This document shows, piece after piece, positions 1,161-52,974 of a stretch of 64,000 nucleotides of DNA. The notes under the pieces were generated by a model, which saw nothing but the letters and a program-made list of their open reading frames with translations, did no database searches and was not told the origin of the DNA. The stretch spans positions 159,836,001-159,900,000 of the forward strand of contig OX597814.1 in NCBI GenBank assembly GCA_951406725.2, written 5' to 3'. Position numbers and translations under genes: made by a program. Position 1 is the stretch's first letter; each line of letters opens with the position of its first letter. Origin of the DNA: Octopus vulgaris (Eukaryota).

Positions 1161-1362
1161 TTTTTTTTATAACATGCTTTCATTCACTACCGAATGGTGC
1201 TCTGTGTGTCTTGGGTATGTACTGTGGTTTGTTGTGATGCTCTTATTGTTACTGTATTGAAAGTGTTTTATGTAGGATGTGTGCGGTGCCTAGTAGTGCT
1301 CTTTTCTGTATGTTATATATATTTGTTAGTCCTGGTGTTTTTGTTATGTATTTGTCTGAATA

Positions 1363-1367
<5 letters not shown>
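1161..1367 (-). mobile_element. 3' end of an R4/Dong-type (restriction-like endonuclease) LINE inside the (TAA)n tract
   Basis: Minus strand 1365-1249 reads KYSDKYITKTPGLTNIYNIQKRALLGTAHILHKTLSIQ*, the QKxAxLGTAHILRK terminus of R4/Dong elements; followed by a short UTR and an A-rich/(TAA)n tail. Confidence 0.8.
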
Positions 1368-1418
<51 letters not shown>

Positions 1419-1942
1419 GAGTGAGAGAGCAGTTCATGCCATCAAAGTGACACTGGGGTAAAATATACGAAGCCCAATATACCCATCATGACTACCCGTC
1501 TGATAAGGGCACACCAGGCACATGCATCACAACCATATGTGCACGACATGGTGATCTCATATCAAGATAAACTGCACATGACCTTGCAGGTGGGGCCCAG
1601 TTAGAATTTTCTTCAGGTTGAGTAGCCCATCCCGCTCAAACGGTCCCTGAATAAGGGTTGTTTAAGGATGTTGAAAAAGCCACCCATGTCTCCAGAGGTG
1701 AATTATTCAAATCCCGAAGAATCCCTCTCAACACATGGCTATGATGCTCCCCCACTACTTCTGCTCGTGATCAGAGATGCACATATCGTCAGCCACTAAG
1801 GGACATGCTTAACTGGTTACGGTCAAACAACTGACAAGCAAATCTGTGGTATTGAGCAGAATATTTGCTGTAGCCCATCTTTTATACCAAGACAGAACAA
1901 TGTACATGATAACACTTCCAATCAGTTAAGATCAGAAGCCAT
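1419..1942. mobile_element. Unclassified ~520-bp element bounded by (ATT)n on both sides
   Basis: Sharp GC-richer block between ATT tracts; no ORF or TIR recognised. Confidence 0.5.
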
Positions 1943-2009
1943 ATTATTATTATTATTATGTTGTTGTTGTTATATTCATTAATGTTTTTTTCTTTTTTTG
2001 CTTTATCAG

Positions 2010-2125
2010 GTTCACATTAGTGAAAAAGGCAAAAATTCCACCAACAGCTCTCGCCTATACTTTAAAGAAAAAATCAGAGTTTCTTGTTGCCATGGCCAAC
2101 TATTCCTTGCACTGTTATGATACAG
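2010..2125 (+). CDS. TBC1D31: TBC1D31 exon (WD40): FTLVKKAKIPPTALAYTLKKKSEFLVAMANYSLHCYDT
   Basis: ttatcAG acceptor, GTaaag donor, 116 nt, phase 2 in and phase 1 out. Confidence 0.92.
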
Positions 2126-3972
2126 GTAAAGAAAAATGTCTTTTGGTTTTTCTTAAGTAATGCTAAGAATTATGTTTAATTAAATTACTCTCTTTTACTG
2201 TTGAAAATTACATTTTCAGGTCTTGATAACTTTCATTTTATTAATCCTACCAATATGGTCACTTCCCTATACACTTTATCCTCTAAACCACAGATGCATT
2301 GCCTCCTTATTGTGCTTTTCCTCCTGCTATTACCATGGGGTCTACTCATCAAAGCCAGCTAACTGCAGTATGCCCTTACCCAAACCCTTTTCAAACACCA
2401 ATTTCTCCTTTCCTTACTTATGCTGTGTCTTCTCCCATGCCACACTCAGTCCACACACTAATAGCTATGTCCTACCCTTCATCCATAGGACATCGATCCC
2501 ATTCTGGTACATGCTTATCCTGCAAATGGTGATTTCTAGATGTTCAAGCTGAACATAAATTGTATCAATCTTACCAGTGGCAGAAGATCTGCAGAAACCA
2601 TAGGCAGGTCCCCTTCCTTCTTACCAAACCATAAAAAAATGTTACAATCATTAATAATATTATTTCATTAGTGATCTTTTATAGAATTTGGTAGGTTCTT
2701 ATAATGATTCTTACATGAAGTATTGGGTGGGGTTTGGGGTTAGGGATAAAATATAAGATATTAGCATCATTATATTAAGCATCTAGTTCTATAAATATTT
2801 GGAAGAACTGGTGTTACTGAAGTAGGGTGTATTACACATCATTTTAAGTTGTTGATTAAAAAGATGCTGTTTAGTATATATTGTATTCACGTGTAAAGAA
2901 ATAATATAGAAAATGTGAAATAGACTGAAATAATTGAGAAGGATCACTTGAATACATCTGCTTGCTAGATAGAAGTCAATAGAGAATTACATATGTTGGA
3001 ACTATACAGAGGTGAGAGGAATTTTCAGTTTTACCAGCAGGGCAAGACAGACAACCTCTATAGTACTGCTTCAATGAAAACATGCATCCAGTTTGCTCTG
3101 TAAAGTGTTTGACATATGGAAGGTATCCAGCCATAGAAGCCATGCCAAAGCTGACACCTTGAAGCATAATCTGATCAGACCCGCTGAACCATCCAACCCA
3201 TGTCAGCCTGGAAAGCAGAAGGCAGCAGTTGTGTCTAAAGTGCTGTTGTTTTTATCTAAAATTTAAGATTTCTTTCCAAACAAATTTTCATTTGTATAAA
3301 ATATCTGAATGTTTGAGATGATTTGTTGTTAATTTCTAAGGATGAAACAGCTTTTGATATATACTTTTATCATTGTTTTCAATTGTTTATTATCTGATTA
3401 CCTTCAGGTGTCTTAATCCTGGATATGTACAGAGTAAGTAGCAAATATGAGCATTAACTTCTAGTAACAGTCCAGTATTATCTACACATCCAGGAATAAG
3501 ACTCTTGATGGTGATCAGAGATCAAACCAGTTGCAATGTAGCACAACTCGAAATATTTAAAATAATTAAAATAGACATATATGTATCATACTTAATGTAA
3601 ATACACCACTAGAAGGCAAATTAACTTCGGTAATCATCCAGAGATAACATCTCTTATGGATGTACCACTTCTTTGCATGTAATGGATTTAAAATAAGTAA
3701 AGTTAATCACCATATATTAACACCCATATTAATGTGGTAATTAGCTTTACTTGTTAGTATAGTTACTACTCTAATCTCTTGAGATTTTACAACCAGCTAT
3801 TTTGCTTGTTGCAAATCAGTAACTGATGGTCACTTTGTTTACTATTTATTGCTTGCTGGAGTAGATTTTGGTGACCAGGTGTTTGTGACTGAAGATGAAA
3901 ACTAATTTAAAACCGAATCAATCTCACAATCCTGTCATTTGCTGGAGGATGGTAGCAGTTGCTCCCCTGCTG

Positions 3973-4017
<45 letters not shown>

Positions 4018-4019
<2 letters not shown>

Positions 4020-4325
4020 GGAGCACTCCGTCGCTTACGACAATGAGGGTCCCAGCTGATACAATCAATGGAACAGCCTGCTTGTAAAATTAACATGCAA
4101 GTGACTGAGCAATCCACAGACATGCGTACCCCTAAAGTAGTTCTCAGGGATATTCAGCATAACACAGAGTATGACAAGGCCTACCCTTTGAAATACAGGT
4201 ACAACTCATTTTTGCCAGCTGAGTGGACTGGAGCAATGTGAAATAAAGTGTCTTGCTCAAGGACACAACGCGTCGTCGGAAATCGAACTCACAATCATGA
4301 ACCGAATGTTCTAACCACTAAGCCA
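4018..4325 (-). mobile_element. tRNA-derived SINE (family D); related copies at about 15440-15740(+), 22950-23285(-), 25690-25870(+)
   Basis: A box TGGCTTAGTGG, B-box-like GTTTCGATTTCC, shared body GTGTCCTTGAGCAAGACACTT..CCAGTCCACTCAGCTG, (TA)n tail. Confidence 0.75.
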
Positions 4326-4583
4326 TATATATATATCTTCTGCCAGATGGTTATAGGTGCAGTGCTGCACCTATAACCCTCTGGCAGAAGATCTGCCTAT
4401 GGTTAAACTAATGGTAACATTAAACAGCCATATTGATGTGGCGATTAACTTTACTTGTTAGTATAGTTACTACTCTGATCTCGAGATTTTACAACTAGCT
4501 ACTTTGGATTTAAAATTATTATTTTATTTCTAAAGATAATATTACTCATCCACAAAATTAATCTCATTCTAATTTCTCTTTAG

Positions 4584-4762
4584 AAACAAAAGAACTGGTT
4601 GCAGAGATGAAAGGTCATCAGACTGCTATAAATAATATCTCAGTTCATGCTAGTGGAAAGTTTGCCATCACTGTATCTGTTGATGATGCTCTTCTTTGGA
4701 ATCTTGAAAAGTTTCAGCAACTGAAGAAATTAAGCATCAATGAAAACATCTGCATAACAGAG
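4584..4762 (+). CDS. TBC1D31: TBC1D31 exon (WD40): TKELVAEMKGHQTAINNISVHASGKFAITVSVDDALLWNLEKFQQLKKLSINENICITE
   Basis: ctttAG / GTagat, 179 nt, GH...WN WD40 signature. Confidence 0.93.
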
Positions 4763-5687
4763 GTAGATATAAATTTTATGTAATTTTAATTTACTGTATT
4801 CTTAAAATATATTCATTTTCTTTTGTAAAAGTGGAGTTTTTTAAAGACTACTGTGGGAGTAGTGTGCTAACATCTTCGTCAATTTAACTAGAAATATATA
4901 TATGACTAGCACTATGACCCAGCAACACCGGAACATAGTGCTAGTGCATGCATATACAGCTGCGTGCATGCACACATACATGCGTGTACTGTCCAAATCT
5001 CCGACCAATCACATACAGCTAGCTGGCATTCAATTGGCGTATCAAGTTTCGGGCATTGTGATTGGGTTTTGGATAGAAAATTCACCAAAAATCACTTCTA
5101 TTGATTTTTTAATGGCTTTGCGGGGTGACTGGGGAAATGTAAAGATGTGCACGACCACCCTTGGACGGTAAGTGAAATTGTAGTTGTCCTTACATGCAAG
5201 CATGTCCCCTGCATCCCTCTTCAGCTGAGCTATCCTAATCTTGCAGGCTCATGGGTGCTGGTGCCACGTAAAAAACACTTGTGCCAGTGCAATGTAAAAG
5301 CACCCATGCCAGTTCTGCATAAAAGCTCCCTATGCATTCTGTAAAGTGAGTCCACAAATCCAATAGTTACAGAATACTGGGGCTACTAATTTGCATAGCA
5401 TAAGTGTTTAGCATTTTATTTAATATCAGTGTTGGTGTCACCTGAAAAACACCCAGTGTACTCTGTAAAGTGATTGGTGTTAGGAAGGGCATCCAGCTCT
5501 AGAAACCTTGCCAAAACAGATAATAGAACTTGGCATAGACCTCTGGCTTTCCAGCTCTTGAGGAATGGACATTAAATGATGAGGATGATGATGATGTTGC
5601 TTGATTTGCAAAAAATATCCTAAAACATAACACTTTCTTACACATTCTTTTAATTGTCTTTCATTTAATACTTCATTTTTCTTTCAG

Positions 5688-16123: not shown

Positions 16124-17410
16124 AATAATAATAATGAAATTATTGTATACAGTGCTCAGGTGCACCACAACTTGTCAGAAAGTGCATATAAAGTACATGC
16201 AGTAATGTAAAAATGTCTGGAAAGCGAACAATGTATGAGTCAGATACATGCTTGTGTATGTAAGGAGGGGAGAAAATCAGGTGTAGTGTTGGCGAATCTC
16301 AGAAAGCATGGAAGTTTTGAAGGATGCAGTGCTCCGACAACTAACAACTGATGCCGGCAGTTTGTTCCATGCTTCAGCAACTCTTAGCATGAAAAAATGT
16401 TTCCTGAAGTCATGGGAGCTGTGCTGTTTTCTGACTTTGTAAATATGTCTACGGGTGTTAGATGGGTGGAGTTTGAAAAGGTGCTCAGAGTTATTGTTTG
16501 TACGATGGTTGATAATTTTATGGGTGTCTGCCAAGTCAGCTGCCAGATGTTGGAGTTTCAATGTGTCCATGCCCAGGGAAGTAAGGCGTTCAGGATATGG
16601 CAAATGCCTGATGGAGGGTATTCTTTTGGTTGCACGTTGCTGAACAGCTTCCAGACGATTGATATCCTGGGCAAGATAGGGGTTCCAGACCGGTGATGCA
16701 AACTCCAAGTGAGGTCTTACCATAGCTATATAAAGCTGCAGATAGATAGCCGGAGAGCGGCTCACAAAGGATTTAGTGAGTGATGCCAAGACACCCTCAG
16801 CCTTCTTGACAATTTTAGCGATGTGCTTTGTCCAACGCAAATCACTGTCGACAATAACACCCAGGTCACGTTCACATGAAGACTTTTTGAGACTAGTGTT
16901 GTGGAGGGAGTAGGTGGATGCTGGGTTTCTCCTCCCAAAATGCATGGTGGTACATTTGTCCACAGCCAGCTTGAGTTGCCAGTCCATGATCCACTGCTGC
17001 ATTGTGTCCAGATCTGCTTGCAATAGAGATCTATAGTGTACAGGATTTGACCTCTTTATTTCGAGGTACAGCTTGATGTCATCTGCATATTTCAGCACTG
17101 TGGCATTCTTTAAGTTGGCATCTATGTCATTAAATATGCAACAAATAAAAGGAGGCCAAGAATAGATCCCTGTGGTACACCAGATGTCATCTCATAGGGC
17201 GAAGAGTGCTGACCTAGAACTGTGACAACCTCTTTTCGGCCGAAAATAAAAGACTTCAACCAGTTATAGAGTTCGTCTCTTACACCCAACGCAGAAAGCT
17301 TCACCATAAGTCTTTTGTGTGGCACAGAGTTAAAAGCCTTAGCAAAGTCCAGGTAAACAACATCCACCCAGGATCCGTGATCAGTGATTTGGGTAACGTC
17401 CTCAAGAAAG
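16124..17410 (-). mobile_element. CR1-clade LINE, 5'-truncated, RT frameshifted near 17133
   Basis: YLDFAKAFNSVPH, GVPQGSILG, YADD, RPHLEFASPVWNP, RKHFF..RV...WNKLP across ORFs 17122..17367 and 16277..17098; (ATT)n tail. Confidence 0.93.
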
Positions 17411-19071
17411 ATTGTAATAACTAATTTCTATACTTTGAGGTTTTACACCTTGACAGTAGACTTAACCAGACATCCTGTAAATAGGTGAGGGTTCTCTCTG
17501 TAGCAAAAGACTTCATAAATTATTGAAGCCAAGGTTAAGATTTTTATAATATTGATTTATTTCATTAATATATCTATTATTTTTCTGCCACTTTGCCAGG
17601 AGCCTTTTATGGAATCCACAATATTTGAAACAGTCTAACCTTCTCTCTGCTCTGAAGTTAACTTCTTCCTGTTGGTCTTGGAGGCCCTAAAAAGGGTCAT
17701 GGACATGACCTTTTATCCTCTGATTAAGACATAAAAAAGAAAAATACAAAAACAAGTCACTTACAGAGGGACTTATTAAGCTAAGCGCTAGACAAAATGT
17801 TTTACAGCAATTATTTTAAACTTTTCAAGTTTGTATTCAAGTTCCCTGGGACTAACTTTGACTTTCATCTGTCTGGCTTTCATAAAATAAATACCAATAA
17901 TGCATTATTGACATCCATTCATTTGCTATTATAATATTATATAAAAAATTATTTTAAAAAACTGCAAATAATTGTACAAAATAAATCAATAATTATAGAG
18001 TTATCAACTTTAAAATTACTACAGTTCAACTGAAGTCTGTCATTTATTACAGTATATCATATGATGTTACATCCCTAGCCTGTCTAGTTATATATTGTTG
18101 AACAAACTATTAATATTATAACAATAACAAAGGCAGCAAGCTGGCAGAATCATTAGTATAGCAGGCGAAATACTTAGAAGCATTTCATCTGTCTTCACAT
18201 TCTGAGTTCAAATTCTGCCATGGCCAACTTTGCCTTTCATCATTTAGGTATCGATAAAATAAGTACCTGTTGAACAGTGAGGGTCGATGTAATCGACTTA
18301 ACCCTTTCCCTGAAATTGCTGGCCTTGTGCCAAAATTTGAAACCAAAATTATGACATTTACATATTCTATGATCATAGGAATATTAGGCATATTTATGCA
18401 CCATTTGTTTGTAAGCTTATCTTGTAAAGTAATTCATTCATTACTAGTGAAAAATAATTCTAAAAATGTCTATTTCTATAGCAAGAGCCATAGAATACTG
18501 TTAAATTTCCAGAAAGCCATATCTGTTACTTAACCTTGATTCTTTGTTATGACTGTTTAATTTACATAATTAATCCCATCGATACGGGACTACACTTGCC
18601 TCCATGATATCCTACTGTTTGGTTGTTTATTTAAGAAGCAGTGTATCTCTCTGGTATATAATACATCTGTTTTTGCTATTCAGTTTGATCATAAATTATC
18701 AAAAGCTCCAATAAAGATGAGTAAGGTGAACTCAGCCACTGCATAATAATCTCACTGATAAAAATGGACTATAGTATTTTGTTATTGTTGTTGTTTTGCT
18801 GTAAGTACATCCTAAGACCAGCGGCTTCTCAACTGTGGCCAACCTATGTTATCAAAACACTTAGAACTATATTATGCTATATTTCCTTCCTATTTTAAGA
18901 TATTCAAGTGTGATTTGAAGAAGCATTTCTAGCAGATCAAAGAACCACAGAGCCCCACCTCCACCACGACGTTCTCTTTTCTGTGTATTTTGCGTTTGCC
19001 GAACAAAGTTTAAAATTAATGTAATTTCATTAAGAAAAATATTTATTGTTATTAATTTCTTTATTTTCAAG

Positions 19072-19205
19072 TTAACTGGTGTGGTCATTGGTTTGAATAT
19101 TTCCCTAATCCTCCAATTAATATTCTTGGAATGATTGAGAACGTCCTTTCACGACATGATCCCACTCTCTTGAGGCATCTGATTAAATACAAAGTCACAT
19201 CTCAG
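19072..19205 (+). CDS. TBC1D31: TBC1D31 exon (TBC): NWCGHWFEYFPNPPINILGMIENVLSRHDPTLLRHLIKYKVTSQ
   Basis: ttttcaAG / GTatat, 134 nt. Confidence 0.94.
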
Positions 19206-19664
19206 GTATATATATATCATCATTATCATCTACATCTGTGTGTGTGTGCACGCATATGTATGTATATCAGTTGTCAGTTTTCCCTTGTATTGCATTTAAT
19301 AATTAATTTCTGTATACACACTGTCAGTTTTCCAAACTATACATATGATGTTGGGCTGCCTACATGCACACCACCAACTGACCTTTCTCTCACTGCCCAC
19401 AAACAATCAAATCTGGGTCTGAGAATAGTTCAGGATTTTGCTATATTACTTCCTACTGCAGCAAACCATGAACTACATCTTCCTCTGACCAGTCTTGAAA
19501 GTTCTTTGGAAAGGTCATGATCTCTGCTCCTACCTCTCTGACTTAACCCATTGAAAAAAGAATTAATAAATTACAGTACCCTACTTTTATGCTTTTATTT
19601 GCAAAAAGCCTTCTAGAATGTAGCATATGTAACTGAGGTAGTATCCAATTAAAATAGCCCTCTA

Positions 19665-20857: not shown

Positions 20858-21340
20858 ATCATCATCATCATCATTGTTCGACCGTGGTCGAGACAATGGA
20901 ATTTACTATGCTGCGCCAGACTTCACGGTCCATCATGGCATTGCGGAGGTCCTGTCGCTGGATGCCTGTATCCCTGGAGATTACATCAGTGTTGCGAGTA
21001 GATGGCTTCCAGAGGAGAAGAGTAGAAATTGCCTCGTTTTCAGCTCTACAACAATGTCCAGCAAACTGGACTCTCCTACCTTTCACAAGAGATGACACAG
21101 GTGGTAGTTTCCCAAATATTTGCATTTTGGTTGGATGATGCTTCCACGAGAGATTTTGAGCTCTCATAAGGAGGCGAGTGTAGGTTCCATCCAACCGCCT
21201 CTCAAGCTTCTTTGATAACGTCCAGGTTTCTGAGCCATATAGTAGAATTGGTTTGACTGTGGCTTTGAAGATTTCAAGTTTGAAGTCTCTACTTAGATTT
21301 GATGACCAGATCTTATGCATGTCATGGGATGACCAGTACC
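20858..21340 (-). mobile_element. Second RTE-type LINE 3' fragment nested in a family-B SINE (about 20755-21590)
   Basis: KLEIFKATVKPILLYGSETWTLSKKLERRLDGTYTRLLM...QFAGHCCR; the stop codon runs into the (TGA)n tail; possible TSD CCTTG(G/C)GA. Confidence 0.85.
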
Positions 21341-22374
21341 TTGCGAGCGAAACTAGTGGACTGGAACTGTGCAGAAGGCCATCACATGTGTTTGTGTGTG
21401 TGCATGTGTTCATATGTATTTGTGTTTCTGTCACTGCTTGACAAACACTGTTTTTATTCTATGACCTAGCAGTTCAACAAATAGTGGATGATAAGTGATA
21501 GATTTATAAATAAGAGCTGGTTGAATAAAATCCTTCTTAGCATTGCTCCAGTATGACCACTGTCCAATGACTGAAATAAGTAAAGGAATAAAATGAAGAA
21601 CATTTTATTTTTATTTTATTCATTTCCTCTGTGTTTATGTTGTTATTTCTTTTTTTTATATTTATTGAAATTTAAATCTTATTAGATGTTTTCAAATTAG
21701 CTTCCAGAACTAAAACTGTGTGGCCAAATTGAAATATTGTAAGTTTCTATGGCAACAAAATATGTAAACCAAACAGTATTATAACATTTGTAACTAATGC
21801 TATGAATCCCAACATATTGAGTGATCAGTTGTAAGAAGGCCTTTTGTTTTGTTTTGTTTTTTTTTTGCTTTTGCATGAGTTATCTATCCTATTAAAAATG
21901 GGACATTTTTGCTGTCTCAACATCATGTGATCCAAGCAGTTAATATATTCATTATTTGTTAAGTCAAGAGAAGAGTGCTCAGATAAATTTTTAGGCTTCA
22001 TCAACGAGGAGGGGAGATAACTGACTGAAGTTAGTTTTTTTTTTTGTTACCATATTATAGCTATAAGGAAAACATGGACTAAAAAGTTCTAAAAGAGAGC
22101 AGTTATTGGGAGAAAATGGGATCATCATCATTATCATCATCATCATTTATCGTCTGTTTTCCACACAGGCATTGGTTGGACGATTTGAGAGGAGCTGTCC
22201 AGTTGGAGAGCTGCATCAGGCTCCAATTGTTTGTTTTAACATGGTTTCTATGGCTGGATGTCCTTCCTAATGCCAGCCACTTTACAGAATGGACTGGGTG
22301 CTCCTTATGTAGAACCAGCATAAGTGTTTTATACATGGCACCAGCACTGGTGCTTTATATATAGAACTGGTGTT

Positions 22375-43760: not shown

Positions 43761-44402
43761 GAAATATGCCCTGTGCATTACATGTGACATGCAGAACAGG
43801 CAAAGGGTCAAACAACTAATGGACCCCACTGCCCTCTTGTTATTTGCTGCTCCTTTGTGAGCTAACAACTGCCTGAAGTTGATACTGCTACAAATAAACA
43901 GAACAAATGAATGAGCATGCCTTTCTATGTGGAGCCTCATCATACAGAACAGGTCTTAAATTGTGGGCATTGATTTTTAGTAAAGAATGAAAAGTTGGAT
44001 TAGGGTGTAAATATTTAACCTTTGACAGATCTCACAATTTTCTTTCATCTTCCTTTGAGATCTCACAATCATAACAACAAAAACTTGCTACCAAAGACTG
44101 GCCTTCCTCATCAACATTAGAATGTACTTCAGCTCTAATTAGATGTTGACTCTCTACAAAGCTCAAGTATAAACAACAATGGAGTACTGTTGTCAGGTTG
44201 CTACTCTACACATTTCCTAGATCACTTCAAAAGGAAACAGATTATTTGGCTGCATCTCACTCACCATCACTCTACAACCACTAATCCACAGATATTCTCT
44301 GTGTGTGTTCATTTCCATTTCACTTCAAGTATATCAGTCATACCTTAATAAAAGTATTAATGTCGCACACTAATTTATTTTAGTATATACGTATGTATTA
44401 TC

Positions 44403-46865
44403 GACGACAAATATGGAGAAGAAGGATCTGGAAGCTTAAAGATCCTGCAAATGGACAGAGATTTAGGGACATATTACTTGAAACCTCTGACGAAGTAGAA
44501 GGGGATAGAGCATCACAGGGGGTAGAAGACAGCTGGACGTTTCTAAGGGACAACCTGCTGAGAGCCACTGACCAGATCTGTGGCTGGTGCAAAGTCCCCT
44601 CTCGACCTAGAATAACGTGGTGGTGGAACAATATTGTAGACAGGGCTATTAGAGAAAAGAGACAGGCTTGGAAGGTCTGGAAAAATGGGGGTAGCAGGGA
44701 ATTGTATCAGACTGCCAAAAGAGAAGCTAGGAGACAGGTTTATTTAGCCAGAGGGGAAGCAGATAAGAAAAAATTTGCCAATGTTCTGCGCTGTGAGGAC
44801 CAAAGACTGGAGGTGTTTCGTGTTGCAAGACAGTGTGTGAGAGAGAATCGTGATGTGGTAGGAGAGAAGTGTGTTCGCATGGAAGATGGTTCACTTGCGC
44901 TAAATGAGGATGCAAAGAGAGAGGTTTGGAGATGCCACTATGAAAGGTTGCTGAATGAAGAAAATGAATGGGATAAAGAGAGTCTGCCGAATGTTGACCC
45001 AACAGAGGGACCAGCTATCCGAGTTGATAGTTCCGTGGTAGCTAAGGCAATTAGAAGCATGAAGACAGGGAAAGCCCCAGGCCCATCAGGAATCACTGCA
45101 GAGATGCTCAAAATGTCTGGTAGTGTCGGCTATAGCCTAGTCACCCGTATAGTTAATCAGGTGATACACAAAGGGGTCATACCCAATGACTGGTGTAGCA
45201 GTATAATAGTCAACTGCTACAAAGGTAAAGGTGATGCCCTAGATACAAATAACTACAGAGGTATCAAGCTGTTGGACCAGGTGATGAAGGTTACGGAGAG
45301 GGTCATAGCCCAACTAATTAGAGAGAGAGTTAGTTTAGATGAGATGCAGTTTGGGTTTGTGCCAGGGAAAAGTACTACTGATGCTATATTCCTGGTAAGG
45401 CAGCTGCAGGAGAAATACCTAGCCAAAGATAAGCCCCTGTACCTGGCTTTTGTTGACATGGAGAAAGCCTTCGACAGGGTCCCCCGATCCCTTATCTGGT
45501 GGGCAATGAGGAAACTAGGGATAGATGAATGGTTAGTGAGAGCTGTGCGGGCCATGTATAGGGACGCCGCTAGTAGGGTGAGGGTTGGAAATGAGTACAG
45601 TGAAGAATTCCGGGTAGAGGTAGGAGTCCACCAAGACTCAGTACTCAGCCCCCTCCTATTTATCATAGTCCTCCAGGCAATAACGGAGGAATTCAAGACA
45701 GGATACCCTTGGGAGCTCCTCTATGCTGATGACCTTGCTCTAATTGCTGAGTCGCTATCAGAACTGGAGGAGAAGTTTCAGGTGTGGAAACAAGGATTAG
45801 TATCGAAGGGCCTCAGAGTCAATCTAGCTAAAACCAAAGTCGTAATCAGTAGGAAGGTAGACAAATCACAAACACCTTCAGGTAGATGGCCCTGCTCGAT
45901 CTGTAGAAAAGGTGTAGGTAGAAACTCTATAAGATGCACCAAGTGTAAGCTATGGACACATAAGAGATGCAGCAATGTCAAAGGAAGGCTAACTAGGAAG
46001 ATGGTTTTTGTATGTGGCAGATGCTCAGGAACAATAAACACTGAAAATGCTCTGAGACCAACTTCCGTCACTTTCCAGGGAGAAAAACTAGAAATAGTTG
46101 ATAGTTTCCGTTACCTAGGTGACCAAGTCAGCAGCGGGGGCGGGTGTGCTGAAAGTGTAACTGCTAGAGTAAGAATAGCTTGGGCAAAGTTCAGAGAGCT
46201 CTTACCTCTGCTGGTGACAAAAGGCCTCTCGCACAGAGTGAAAGGCAGACTGTATGATGCGTGTGTACGAACAGCCATGCTACATGGCAGTGAAACATGG
46301 GCCGTGACTGCTGAGGATATGCGTAAGCTCGCTAGAAATGAAGCCAGTATGCTCCGATGGATGTGTAATGCCGGTACTCACACTCGGCAGAGTGTAAGTA
46401 CCTTGAGAGAAAAGCTGGACCTAAGAAGCATCAGTTGTGGTGTGCAAGAGAGACGTTTGCGCTGGTATGGTCATGTGGCGAGAATGGATGAAGATAGTTG
46501 TGTGAAAAAGTGCCACACCCTAGCGGTTGAGGGAACCTGTGGAAGAGGCAGACCCAGGAAAACCTGGGACGAGGTGGTGAAGCACGACCTTCGAACTTTA
46601 GGTCTCACTGAGGAAATGACTAGAGACCGAGACCTCTGGAAGTGTGCTGTGCGCGAGAAGACCCGGCAGGACAAGTGAGTCCATAACCCGTGGCCTTCTA
46701 CATAGGATGGAGCCAGCCTACGTATGCATACCTTCCTTCTTGGGACACAAAACTCTACTTGTGAAGACGTGTTGAGGCAAGTGAGGATCAGAATCGAAAT
46801 CGATCAATGGAAATTGCGGATGTGCTACCAGTAACGGACGCTAAACGATGATGATGATGATGATG
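44403..46865 (+). mobile_element. 5'-truncated RTE-clade LINE (2.46 kb), uninterrupted RT frame to TGA at 46676-46678, (GAT)n tail
   Basis: KAPGPSGI, NYRGIKLL, QFGF, FVDMEKAFDRV, YADD (45722-45733), FRYLG, RLRWYGHV, GRGRPRKTW; no APE domain; possible TSD ATTATC (44397-44402, 46866-46871). Confidence 0.95.
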
Positions 46866-46929
46866 ATTATCAGTAGTTCATATATCTGTAAAAGAAGCAC
46901 ACTCTAAAACAGAACAATAATATATTTAG

Positions 46930-48250
46930 AAGGTTGTTTGTTATGGCCAGTTAGAGAGTGACTATTAGTTTCACACCTTTAAAATACTTAACTGTATAGG
47001 AAGCTTGTCAGACTCAAATGGTCAGAGGCACATAACCTTTCTACAGCTGGAGGGAGAAAAATGTAATGGTCAGTTAGTTTTGTAAACAAAAGATATCAAG
47101 AACAATACCCTTCCAGTAAACTTTCAAGTAGGGTGGGGTAATCGCCTTTACATTGGTTCCAGTCATGTCTAAGGATTTTTAAAGCTAGTGGTGTGTTCCT
47201 ATTCAGCAAATTCCAAGTTTGCAACAGGAAACACCTCAGATTAGGGCATTGATTAAACACTTCTTTTCTGGAGCTTAAAGAAGTCTCCAGATCAAGTGAG
47301 TTTTTCAGGATCCTTGCTCTCTTGGCCAAGCAAAGCTCACATCATTTGCTCCTGTTGAGGTATGGCCCCGATGTTCTAAGAGCTTCCATTTAATTATGTA
47401 TGGCATGTCCTCCTATTTAAAACACCACACATAGTTGGCCAGGGATGTGATGTTGTGCATCTCCAGTATCCTAAATGAGGACCTGTAGTTACTCAGGTGC
47501 TGCTTAAAAGGGCCACTTATGGAACTGCCATGTTTCTATGTCTGTGCACTTGCACTGGCAGTGTTATAGTTGCTGTTGTTGTTGTTAAGCAACAAGACGG
47601 GTAAGGGTGATTTAGTGATGGTCTAGGGCTTAGGGGCGGGAGACCCCAAACCTTGGAAAAAAAACTTTGGTCGTCTTGTAGTCGAGGGCTCTTTGTTGAC
47701 GCCCAACACCACTGGGAGGTGGCCCTCGAAGTCGCAGGAAATGGAGATCTCCAGGTGCAAATTCTTGAACGGCTGCTGCTGCTGTTGCTCCAGTCACAAG
47801 TGTTGTTGCTGCTACATCTGGATGTCATCCTGATGCTGCAGTTGCAACTGGCGTAGCTGCCAGAGCCGGTCACCACCTCATTCTCATACACTACCCCTTC
47901 AATAGGCACTGTATGCTGACACTGCTGGCTGCATTGCCGTTGATGTTGTAGCCATTGGTGTTGCAACCATAGCTGACTCTGCTGCTCGATGCATTACTGG
48001 TGTGGCTGCTGCCACCGCCACTGACATTGCTGTTGTTATTGGCTGATGTGTCACTGATGCTGTTGCTGTCACTGTGGTTGCCAGAGCTGGTCACCACCTC
48101 ATTCTCATACACTACCCCCTCAACAGGCAGTGTGTGAGGTTGACGTGGTGACCACTTATCAACACACTCCAACACTCCTATACTGCCTTCTCATCCTGTC
48201 TTTTCTACCACACCTGCTGTGGCCTCAATTCTTCAGACCTGGCTGATGTT
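46930..48250 (-). mobile_element. Decayed Penelope-like element (GIY-YIG endonuclease region plus 3' end)
   Basis: Frameshifted CLLRGxCMRM/EVV, GPFKQHLSNYRSSFR..HNITSLANYVWCFK*EDMPYIIKWKLL, PYLNRSK*CELCLA...RKEVFNQCPNLRCFLL follow the PLE GIY-YIG motif order. Confidence 0.8.
46956..47015 (-). ncRNA. Type I hammerhead ribozyme motif (one core substitution) at the 3' end of a Penelope-like element
   Basis: Minus strand GAGU-CUGACAA-[stem II]-GAAA-CU-AAU-AG-UC-ACUC: stem I GAGU/ACUC, stem III ACU/AGU, GUC triplet; G8 replaced by A. Confidence 0.72.
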
Positions 48251-51200
48251 GAGTCACTTCCAACAAAACCTATTTGATTCACTTATTCTTTTATTCTTTT
48301 ACTAGCTTCAGTCATTTGGTTTCTGCCATGCTGGAGCACCACCTTGAAGAGTTTTAGTTGAACAACTCGACCCAGGACTTATTTTTTAAGCCTAGCAATT
48401 ATTCTATTCATCTCTTTTGCCAAACCACTAACTTATGGGGACATAAACACACCAACACTGGTTGTCAAGTGGTAATGGGGAGACAAATACAAACACACAC
48501 ACACATATATATATATATGATGGGCTTCTTTTCATAACCCATATTGTGTTTCCCTTCATGCAGGTGTCACAATAAAAAATTAACAGGTATCACAATAACC
48601 TCGAGAACCAATCTTTTTCCCTTAGAGAATCACTTATCTGAAATTTCCCTGCTTCCCATATTTTTCCTGCAATTGTTCAAAGGAGACTAACAACACCAGT
48701 TATATTAGTCTTAAAGTGCTTTGTATAGACCCTTATTCTAGACAAACTATATATTTAAAAATGAAATTGTAAACAAAAAAAGATGATGATACTTAAAGTC
48801 ATTAGACAGAACCCCACACGAAATGCCTTGTGGTATTTATGCTGATTTCTTGCATTCTGAGTTCAAACCCCTTTCAAGTGAGCTTTGCCTTCTAGTCTTC
48901 TAGAGTCAATAAATAAAGTATTTGTCTAGAGCAGTGAACTGACAAGATCATTCAAGTATCAAATGGGATGACTTCCACCTTACCTTATTTGGGTGATTGT
49001 CTAAATTCATTGCCCAATTTAATACTACCAGCTGGTCCTTGGATGCCCCAGAGTTCACTCAGTCGCAAACAAGTAAGCCAAGCTGCAGGTTTGAAGTTAC
49101 CTTTCTCCCTCTCATAGGACTAGTAAAGGGCTATGGTCACTATCTTTCCTGCTCGACTAAACATTAAATATAAAAGGTCAATAGTGATTGAGCAGACTTA
49201 TGACTAAAGGTCATCTATTTGTTGCTGTCCCACGTTTTTAGTGGCATCTAAATCTACATTATATGATATATCTTACTCTTATTAAGATGCTAGAGGTTTG
49301 ATTTAAGGAAAATTAGGCTGCTGTTTCTTGCAGGTTAAGTGACCATATTGAGTCACTACCATTGGCTTGTAAATAAGTCCATGATGATACAGCTGCTGTC
49401 AAAGTATGAGAAGAAATGGTGAAACCAAGCAGAGGCTTTTGCTTTGTTCATTTTCTTTCTTTGCTGTTTTTTTTTAAATTTTTTTTTTTTAAGATCGTAA
49501 TCTATCTGATATCATTTTTGTACTTGTCACAAATTAACACTGAGGAAATCAGTGTTAACACGATGTGAAAAAAAAATTTGACATTTATATCTAGGGCCAG
49601 TTAATGTAATGACTCACCAGATTCCCTCAGCAATTGCAACATTAATGTCACACACACACCTACCACAATACAACACACAACAGAACTGTCTCTCATTACA
49701 TTATTGGCAAATGTATCATTCTATCCTTAGTTGGAAATGCTGTACTTTTTACTCTTTTTTTTTCCACTAAAGCTCTGAAATAAAGTCTATCACATATTTT
49801 TTTTAATATTTCAATAGCTGTAAGTTTAACTCTAAAAAAAATATATGAAATAATTATGTTGAAAATAATCTAAGTATAGTTTATAAAAAAATTTCAAAAC
49901 AATACAAGGTTGTATCAATAATAATTTCTTTCTGGCCTTGGGAAACAGGTGAGGGTTGGTGTCAAGAAGAGCATCCAGCTGTAGAAATCAGCCTCAGCAA
50001 ATTCTGCCTGAACCTTGCAAAGATGTTGAAATGAATGTTAAGTGGTAGTGGTTGTGGTGGTGGTAGTGATGGTGGTAGAGTGGTGGTGGTGGTGGTGGTA
50101 GTGGCAGTTGCAATGATGGACACAAAGCCACAAATTTGGAGATGGAATTAGTTGATTAAGTTGACTGTTACGTTATTTATCAGCCTCATGAGGACGAAAG
50201 ATGAAGTTGACATGTCAAGATTTGGACTCAGACTGTTACTGAATAGTGTGGATTTAACATTCTCTGTCACTTCCATCTTATACTTCTTCTACATATTGAT
50301 TCTAACTTAGAGAATGGGATGTGCTTGGTTGCAGAAATGATATTATTATAACATTGTTTAACCCCAGGTCAAACCCGAACAGACTTATTATGAAAAGCAT
50401 TCTACCTGCAACCTTTGCATTTTTTTCAGATACAGTTTATTTTCTTTATTATTCAATATGTCCCCTTTTAAAAAATATAGTAGGGTATGATTTGAGAGAG
50501 AGAGAGATGAAAAGGCACTCTCATTGGCTTACAGGAATGGATGATCTCTGAACCAAATTTTTAGTGGTGTAGTGTGGCTTCTGCTAGTTTCAAATCATCT
50601 TGCTCAGATCCCCAATGTGGAACCACAGTCTAACTAGTTTACCATAAAAGGCAAAGCCAGCTATGAGAAACTAACTATGTCACCATAAAAGGCATTAATG
50701 CCTGTGAATGTGGTTTGGTCAATCAGATCAGCTGGTGTGCAGTCAAATAAGTGATAGGCTTGAAATTAAGTTTTGTGGATTCCTTCACTATAGTTTTGCT
50801 GAAGATTCTAGAAGCTTGACTCAATGTTATAATAAGCTGGGATACTGAACTCCCAAATAGAACGGCCTCTGGTGCTACACAGAACTATATCAATCGGTTT
50901 TGTGATACGGTGTTCTCACTCCTACTTATTTGGTCTTTAATAACCAAAGATGATTTTCATATAATTAAAATATTTTATGCAATGAAGTCTTTTAACTATA
51001 ACATTTATCATCTCATGTATGCCATTTTAGTCAAATAACTGTTGTACATATGTAAATACAAATGTTCTGAGTAATAAAGAATATGGAAATGTTTTTATAT
51101 GATTAATGGTCATTTTCATCTTTACTGCAGCCTACTTAATATTGTGAACTATCAACAATGACTAAATGACCAGCTCCACTAAATGATGACCAACGTAAAT

Positions 51201-52974
51201 GATATTTAACTACACCCCTTCACATCACGAACTAAAATTCCACTGTTGGTGAATGGAAAACATCTTTTAGCCTTTCAATGTCAATATAGTAACAGTCAAA
51301 ATAATAACTAAGATCAATTTGACTGTTTGCTCAAATTGTAAGACCTAATGTTGTGGTTCTCAAACAGACAAATACTAGTCTCACCACCTATTGGCCAACC
51401 AAAATATCAATGATATTTTTTTTACCTCTTCCTTTTTTAAAGAAGACAAAATGGTGCTTGCAGCCATATAATTCTCCTTTCAGGCCTGTATTGTTTCTAC
51501 AAGTTATAAAAGTTTTAAACCATTTCAATTATATTAAACATGGCAAGTTGTTCACCCACTTTTAAATCCTCAGGGCACTCCTCACCACAAAGAGTATTAG
51601 GCCTTCTCCTATAATAAATACTTGCTTAATGTCAATGCAAGAAATATTTTTTCTTATTATGAGGACTACATGATTGGCAGAAAGGGCATAGAATTGGTAA
51701 ATTAGTGAGAGCATCTGGTGCTTGCCAGCTCTTACCATTCTGACTTCAAACTCTGCTGCTGTCAGTTTTGTCTTTCATCCCTCTTGGATTGATAAATAAA
51801 GTACAAATCAAGTAGTAAGGTGAATGGTATTATGTAACCCCACCCAACATCAAAAGTTCTATCAAAAGTCTTGCCCAAAATCCTATCAAAAACTGACATG
51901 ATGATTGGCTGGAAAAACTGCTAGTAGACATTATAAGAGAGTTCAAAGATATACCCAAAGGTCAACCTTACCAAACAGAGTATTATTAATGCCTAGTGAC
52001 AATTATTTCTGGCCAACAATACCAAATATAGTAATTTTATTTGCCTATAGTTTTGACTTTAAGCTTAAACATTCCAGGTCTGAATTTGTGGAATGGTATC
52101 TGCTTCAACTTTATTGTGGGCATCATCTGAGTTTCATGGAATATCAGTAATTGTTATAGATTGGGATGAAGTATTTGCTGGTCCTGAATAGACGGACTAA
52201 TCATTGGGATGCTGTCCTAGCAATTTTAACCTTTTGCAAGCTGCTGACGCATCATGTTGCTGCATGAGTTATCTCCCCTCTCAGTGCAACACAATGCAGC
52301 TACAGGGAAGAAAATTTGTACAATGCCATGATGTGCATCAATGTGCTGAAAGTTAGATATGCTTTCAAGAGAAATCTTCAGTGATCGAGGAACCTAACAT
52401 TTTCTCCTAAACATTTAAATGATGGCTGACTTGAACTATTAAATAAATACTACCAAAAGTAAAATTCTAGCATGTTTCATTAAACAATTTTTAATACAGG
52501 GCTGAGGGAAAACACCTCAGGGTAGCATTTTGTATTCTAAATACATATAAGAGTGAGTCTCACATATATAGTATAGTGAGTTGAAAAACTCCATTTAAAT
52601 TATTTTTGCAATATCAGATAATCAAAAATTCTGTTTTGGATTTTAAACACCCCAAGAGGGACTTTTGTTTTCTATTTGTAAAATAAATCTCAGTTAATTG
52701 ACGTTTTTCAACTCACAATATGTATATTACATACAAGATGTATGTAATGGTAGTGGTTGTGGTGGTGGTAGTGGTTGTGGTGGTGGTAGTGGTTGTGGTG
52801 GTGGTAGTGGTGGTGGTAGAATGGTGGTGGTAGTGGTGGTGGCAGTTGCAATGATGGACACAAAGCCACAAATTTGGAGATGGAATTAGTTGATTAAGTT
52901 GATTCTAGTACTTGACTGTTACGTTATTTATCAGCCTCACGAGGACGAAAGATGAAGTTGAACATGTCAAGATT

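Follow-up and report, generated by a model that had tools for sequence, protein, structure and literature searches.

The window, as we call the whole 64-kb stretch of octopus DNA that was analysed, carries on its minus strand a retroelement remnant that extends beyond the interval of 46930..47520 flagged when only the letters had been read (Table 1). This remnant is very likely the 3' part of a 5'-truncated and decayed Penelope-like element (PLE) with a Hydra-type endonuclease (EN). Its type I hammerhead is likely dead here, and the ancestral family likely possessed a full core that would cut after GUC (46960/46959) once two copies paired through a palindromic stem III. The protein homology, the limits of the element, its TA target, the subsequent insertions of a SINE-like repeat and an RTE, the letter variants seen in sister copies and the depletion of CpG are directly established. 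No further PLE copy was found within the window.

Table 1. Features of the PLE remnant and of the adjoining insertion (positions in the window)
Feature	Position	Strand	Remarks
Degenerate (TA)n run	44384..44398	none	Inferred original PLE target, displaced by the RTE
Young 5'-truncated RTE-type LINE at the PLE 3' end	44403..46865	plus	Unbroken frame; RT and PHD matches; (GAT)n tail
PLE remnant	~46866-48190	minus	Larger than the interval originally flagged
Optional 3' tail	46866..46926	minus	Sister-copy end points; (TA)n in the clipped ends at either site
Type I hammerhead, decayed	46944..47024	minus	4-bp stem I and distal helix, G8A core, long stem II, near-palindromic stem III; predicted cut 46960/46959
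Near-palindromic stem III	46961..46969	minus	4 pairs with a 1-nt loop; U-A at 15.3-16.3 in this copy
Stem II and loop II	46973..47004	minus	Broken here at 47003, 47002, 47001, 46979 and 46973
Core CUGA-N-G-A strand	47005..47011	minus	Position 8 is A here
C-terminal half of a Hydra-type GIY-YIG endonuclease (YIG remnant, FKxR, CxxC, E, N, CxH)	47222..47535	minus	2 stops, 1 frameshift; changes here at R, E, N and H
SINE-like insert of very high copy number, with (AAC)n tail, in the GIY-YIG spacer	47571..47772	minus	Contig depth; loose ends 47569-47574; 5' limit from the GIY matrix scan
GIY strand (EGVVYENEVVT at 47900) and Asn/Ser-rich spacer, proximal copy	47773..47915	minus	Joint top matrix score
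Tandem duplicate of GIY strand (48121) and spacer	47916..48136	minus	221-nt period; identity 71% across 143 nt
Uncertain 5' truncation point, with what may be a degenerate CxCX5C linker	48137..48190	minus	Comparison by eye

The sequence-only reading had proposed that hopping between minus-strand frames yields the C-terminus of a PLE GIY-YIG endonuclease, and all five of its motifs are present at 47508-47222, in two frames. One frame holds FKQHLSNYRSSF (47508-47473), TSLANYVW (47448-47425) and YIIKWKLL (47400-47377), and the other CELCL (47341-47327) and RKEVFNQCPNLRCFLL (47269-47222); the coding sequence is interrupted by two stops (47415, 47344) and by a single frameshift near 47370. A phmmer search of 1.84 billion proteins recovered 32 relatives at E<=1e-3, and a profile built from them scored 75 and 31 bits on the two EN frames, with the next site in the window at 9 bits. 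Among the 15 of the 32 relatives that were examined we found the Hydra pattern, that is, CxxC and CxH around a conserved E and N, without CCHH. The CCHH zinc finger is likewise absent from the remnant, in which the EN region is gap-free against Hydra ENs. One of six relatives looked up is named, XP_014771448.1 of Octopus bimaculoides, and shows 40% and 52% identity over two segments. Pfam gave no family for either EN fragment or for the frame of the GIY strand and spacer, and a word-based homologue search with the decayed EN fragment found none among longer proteins. Long octopus-type proteins, sought with residues 228-327 of the relative P0007, yielded 12 candidates of which none was significant, a result of little evidential weight, and the ESM Atlas matches for the same relative gave a GIY-YIG lead only (15% of one cluster). 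No reverse transcriptase (RT) match was detected in the 64-kb window in a search with the relative P0037, nor upstream of the remnant; placement in the Hydra clade thus rests on the EN, the hammerhead and the target together. The EN lies at the C-terminal end of the ORF and is followed by the 3' UTR, the hammerhead and the end of the element.

Sister copies were collected as contigs of public octopus-like runs aligned at 80% likeness; the stretch 46850-47750 gave 2403-5218 contigs per run in four runs. The locus itself recurs in runs that bear four organism labels, in contigs with 0, 7, 7 and 19 differences from it. The summed contig depth in run X3, 9786 as against 49.9 for the own-locus contig, hints at one to a few hundred loci, though it does not amount to a copy number. 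CELC is found at 47341, and in place of the K, S and CPN of this copy the family majority reads E, N and CPH. In run X1 the majority letters convert K47323 to E (59%), S47275 to N (81%), N47242 to H (78%) and the TAG at 47415 to E (93%), and an extra A behind 47369, the frameshift site, occurs in 5, 4, 1 and 4 contigs of the four runs; these restorations come from the 40 variant rows listed, out of 327, for the 46850-47750 alignment. Because sister copies restore E, N, CxH, the stop codon and, in some, the frameshift base, the EN lesions are mostly private to this copy.

The N-terminal part of the nuclease domain was located with a GIY-strand matrix built from 19 of 35 homologues. EGVVYENEVVT, at both 48121 and 47900, ranked joint first of 127,930 positions, with a score of 18.0 versus 13.2 for the next. 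Further upstream, a degenerate CxCX5C candidate (~48172-48140) agrees in register with Hydra-1_Obim and retains one Cys only. Cysteines in the proximal spacer copy are missing from its duplicate and resemble Ser-codon drift. At least 51 low-complexity codons, together with the SINE-like insert, separate the proximal GIY strand from the YIG remnant. The SINE-like repeat is about 200 nt long and reaches a contig depth of 3e5-1.2e6 in two runs (~3e5-6e5 in X1); its copies adjoin CAG/CAA repeats, and 47571-47772 has no Rfam match and no other copy in the window. In three runs, 48 additional letters flanked by 11-nt direct repeats are present at 47571-47581, and it follows that the window allele carries a deletion of in-frame length. 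Of 14 homologues in which both motifs were located, 13 have a spacer of 12-18 residues and the remaining one a spacer of 51. Low-complexity sequence also precedes the FKxR segment in P0003, P0005, P0007 and P0036, and P0003 matches 47866-47753 weakly (E=0.024). A long GIY-YIG spacer is the sole feature of the remnant that may be new. With a confidence just short of even, we propose that octopus Hydra-type elements evolved a GIY-YIG nuclease split by a long, microsatellite-like Asn/Ser spacer (at least 51 codons here, ~67 in other alleles and possibly >200 in XP_014771448.1, versus 12-18 in most relatives), that they were still mobile with it, and that their hammerhead, with an enlarged stem II and loop II, is missed by Rfam. 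If active copies had the long spacer, a GIY-YIG fold would show unusual tolerance.

At the 3' end, loose ends at 46870 read (TA)n in four of four runs (21-62 contigs). Four of the 31 pieces listed end at 46922-46927 and another four at 46866-46873, and these stops suggest two 3'-end classes that differ by an optional tail. Single-contig joints between opposite strands fit the inverted insertions of PLEs. The RTE is bounded by a 6-bp target duplication, ATTATC (44397-44402 and 46866-46871); an 86% identical RTE fragment lies at 1-344 of the window. Within the tail, the minus strand at 46895-46920 reads as a decayed, hairpin-like GCUCU...AGAG motif that may be an RT recognition signal; similar words were seen by eye at the 3' or 5' ends of the entries for Hydra-2_Amil, Hydra-1_Ajap and Hydra-2_Ajap. 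Other repeats share 46870-46908 but diverge upstream (loose end 46908).

The words of a type I hammerhead reported on the minus strand were found at 47015-46956, and the hammerhead begins 207 nt after the last protein motif, close to the 200 nt or so that had been claimed. Stem I pairs 47015-47012 with 46959-46956, the core runs from C3 (47011) to A9 (47005), position 8 (47006) being A, G12 is 46972, stem III occupies 46969-46961 and C17 is 46960. The distal CCA/UGG extension of stem I, suggested as possible, falls at 47021-47019/46949-46947, and with the family letters this distal helix reaches 5-6 pairs. In its strict form, a type I descriptor (no more than 1 mismatch in the core, stem I with 4 Watson-Crick pairs, stem III with 3 extra pairs) matched this one site in 64 kb and in none of 30 dinucleotide shuffles. 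With 2 extra stem III pairs it was still the sole site in the window, with matches in 4 of the 30 shuffles, and at the loosest setting 8 sites were found in the window versus a shuffle mean of 3.6. The comparison with Rfam hammerhead models gave no match up to E=10 in 44000-52000 and none at gathering scores in the whole window. The folding z-score of the hammerhead RNA is 0.5-0.8, that is, it folds no better than shuffles. A CUGAAGA word near 48237 was dropped, as stems I and III are absent by eye.

Two defects had been named in this hammerhead, but we count at least seven departures (47006, 46973, 47003, 47002, 47001, 46979 and 47022), and the stem II drawn earlier differs from that of the family. 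A functional type I core reads C3 U G A N G8 A, G12 A A A and U H with a 3-8 pair, whereas this copy combines C3 with A8. G8 is the proposed general acid of the hammerhead (PMC6155905) and pairs with C3, U3-A8 being a natural alternative (PMC3088659); the C3/A8 core is therefore likely inactive. We found no direct cleavage assay of G8A in the sections of the literature covered, in which G8C is among the mutants (PMC11167929). Modeled as a monomer, the hammerhead fold has -2.1 kcal/mol versus a minimum free energy of -12.7 kcal/mol, 10.6 above the optimum, and helices I-III have a pairing probability of at most 0.01. With at least seven lesions and helices at most 1% paired, restoring G at position 8 alone would probably fail to rescue cleavage. 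The hammerhead is likely without function in this copy. The stem III 9-mer, as a hairpin, has a folding energy of +2.1 kcal/mol and, as a self-duplex, of -4.2 kcal/mol. The suggestion that the near-palindromic stem III suits dimers is thus supported, since the self-duplex is favored over the hairpin, as in the dimer-dependent hammerheads described in PMC4209133.

The state of the hammerhead in the family was read from the DNA runs X3 and X16 (242 and 228 contigs on a 141-nt stretch; variants at >=12% of depth; values below are X3/X16). Stem I has 4 pairs, without variant rows, and 47022 is G in 75%/68%, which restores a pair of the distal helix. The family stem II consists of G10.1-C11.1, a bulged U (47003, 84%/91%), C-G, R-U, six Watson-Crick pairs and a 3-bp inner helix; majority letters restore pairs at 46979 (U, 93%/86%) and 46984 (80%/79%). 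In stem III, the pair 15.3-16.3 is C-G in 73-79% of family depth. Two pairs, 46967/46963 and 46991/46985, differ on both sides from the majority, C-G to U-A, which is suggestive of covariation only. Position 8 is G in 29%/34% of the aligned depth, and about two thirds of the depth aligned through 47006 has A8, with an 80% filter that favors copies resembling this one. Contigs unlike this copy are clipped exactly at the core, and the four clipped loose-end consensuses (10, 12, 9 and 9 contigs) all have G at position 8; the overall share of G8 can be roughly estimated at 40-55%. At position 7, 22%/17% of the depth has U; the share of C at 11.1 is 44%/35% and that of A at 12 is 16%/17%. In two runs presumed to be RNA, 4 and 19 contigs of uncertain locus were seen, some with an intact core strand; these were kept out of the evidence. 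One sister copy (runs X13 and X14; loose end 46958) has a (TC)n microsatellite arisen from the letters of the cleavage site.

Sister copies divide into TG and CA at every CpG of the hammerhead. The CpG at 47002/47001 is evenly split in X3 (C 45%, G 46%, A 47%), a pattern that points to near-complete TG/CA decay, and this copy matches neither product. The observed/expected ratio of CpG is 0.07 in the remnant, 0.46 in the adjacent young RTE and 0.33 in the window. CpG deamination had been invoked for G8A and C11.1U, and both the low ratio relative to the RTE and the alternation in sister copies of C/U at 7, G/A at 8, C/U at 11.1 and G/A at 12 bear this out. The accompanying inference that the family consensus should be an active ribozyme is supported in part, as regards the core: many sister copies have an intact core, but a naive majority may read A8, because G8 makes up only 29-34% of the aligned depth, and a CpG-aware consensus is needed. 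A putative ancestor intact at all positions agrees with the per-site majorities and with the clipped-end consensuses of unphased contigs.

Could the A8 form be a working variant ribozyme, comparable to the U3-A8 form of Schistosoma PLEs, or have been retained by a subfamily that spread nonetheless? The predominance of A8 in the aligned depth and the two both-sided C-G to U-A changes, which hint at a subfamily, would fit, as would the finding that insertion in vitro does not depend on an active hammerhead (PMC11167929). We nonetheless consider it very unlikely. The form known from these sources requires U3 with A8 (PMC3088659, PMC4209133), and here position 3 is C, with no C3U variant at the 12% cut-off in X3 or X16, so that U3-A8 compensation is rejected; G8A is the expected product of CpG decay, and U7, the other product, is also common. 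Moreover, 46967 and 46963 do not co-vary in run X14 (100% vs 32%).

Another rival reading is that the hammerhead came from a short, non-autonomous, retrozyme-like repeat that lies beside the PLE fragment by chance, an origin to which we give slightly less credence still than to the working A8 variant. In X1 the depth over the hammerhead region is ~1200-3400 as compared with <=1340 over the EN, but 5' truncation by itself predicts a greater depth toward the 3' end. Although hardly any contig but that of the locus itself matches 47098-47190, one sister contig joins the hammerhead and EN parts at the same spacing (223 versus 200 letters, joint 47091-47292), and there is no tandem unit in the window. 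That AT-rich DNA matched the words of a hammerhead by chance, as the blank Rfam result, the lack of a folding signal and the matches of loose descriptors in shuffles might be taken to mean, is in our judgment next to impossible: the strict descriptor matched no shuffle, the position and stem III agree with Hydra hammerheads, and the sister copies, which restore pairs and core, refute it.

C-terminal EN+ PLEs with a hammerhead and TA targeting form the Hydra clade (Craig et al., 2021; PMC8557442), for which that paper also lists a CxCX5C linker before GIY, an RT with RWK and DKT but no IFD, and a single ORF under 3 kb. The arrangement of EN and hammerhead is therefore already known for this clade, one Octopus family included: Hydra-1_Obim is the sole octopus family among the 27 Hydra families of File S1 (PMC8557442). 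In our literature search on octopus Penelope hammerheads Craig et al. was the only relevant paper, and the family itself was not found described, the Repbase and Dfam libraries lying outside that search. As given there, Hydra-1_Obim shares with the remnant the gap-free EN C-terminus, the CxxC-E-N-CxH pattern, a (TA)n target, a sense type I hammerhead near the 3' end, a stem III identical to the majority of the remnant family, and extra low-complexity residues between GIY and YIG. However, only 50 of 98 residues are identical (~51%, by eye), stems I and II are unrelated in sequence, N7 is A and H17 is U where the remnant family has C/U and C, and the spacer has 27 residues versus at least 51 here. 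Because of the low identity, we place the remnant in the same clade but in a different family. Relative to the clade as documented by Craig et al., the EN motifs, the lack of CCHH, the TA targeting and the 4-bp palindromic stem III with a 1-nt loop (most rows of File S2) are alike, whereas the RT is missing from the remnant, loop II, which contains an inner helix, is longer at 13 nt and a bulged U follows G10.1.

The metazoan PLE hammerheads published so far cleave poorly (Cervera and de la Pena, 2014; PMC4209133). Like the one described here, they have a 4-bp helix I, a long helix II, G10.1-C11.1 and a palindromic helix III, and occur mostly as solitary decayed copies; in our pairing the unpaired base lies after G10.1 here and not before it, and the distal helix I of 5-6 bp is a further difference from those examples. 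In the Poseidon element PAc of Anolis, G8C abolished cleavage but left in vitro insertion unaffected, and two RT start sites explain an optional tail (Frangieh et al., 2024; PMC11167929). PAc resembles the octopus family in its hammerhead within the terminal repeat, its two 3'-end classes and copies that extend past the cut site, but it belongs to another clade, and its hammerhead overlaps the ORF start and was assayed, while the octopus one is known from sequence. A 2026 preprint, which concerns vertebrates, links retrozymes to PLEs. In a metagenome scan, 3 loci among 109 pattern matches all proved to belong to another Hydra family, with no DNA match to the remnant; only one of them (L001) reaches a hammerhead, and its order of EN, hammerhead and (TA)n is that of the remnant. 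On this 1.4-kb contig, two different Hydra-type endonuclease ends stand in tandem (1-385 and 680-1100), the second being followed by the hammerhead and (TA)n.

From known PLE biology, the family protein would have made a nick at TA repeats and copied its RNA into DNA on the spot, from a start ~30 or ~90 nt downstream of the hammerhead cut site. As copies extend 30-90 nt past that site, the template was presumably uncut or re-joined RNA. A premature stop of reverse transcription would account for the absence of RT from the remnant, and the copy would then have been methylated and have decayed neutrally. As a slow, dimeric ribozyme, the hammerhead may have trimmed multimeric transcripts; insertion probably did not require it.

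The locus is an ordinary fossil and, as a single locus, of little weight; the family is a new addition to a clade already known, its ribozyme is of a known kind, and it is the second octopus Hydra-type element with a hammerhead, here one missed by standard models. It also offers a natural test of selection, in that one and the same CpG can decay without harm to UG or, with loss of the core, to CA; the ratio of the two across phased copies would show whether genomic hammerheads experience any selection once inserted.

Elsewhere in the window, probable exons of a host gene lie on the plus strand at 19056-19517, 28861, 30762, 33246 and 40581, with coiled-coil-like segments and a weak RabGAP-TBC match (E=0.016, below the cut-off); we take them to resemble TBC1D31. 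The PLE sits ~6 kb past the last of these candidate exons, on the opposite strand. Two more decayed LINE fragments, with RVT_1 and DUF6451 matches, are present on the minus strand at 16277-17427 and 20871-21458, and several dispersed families of short repeats occur across the window.
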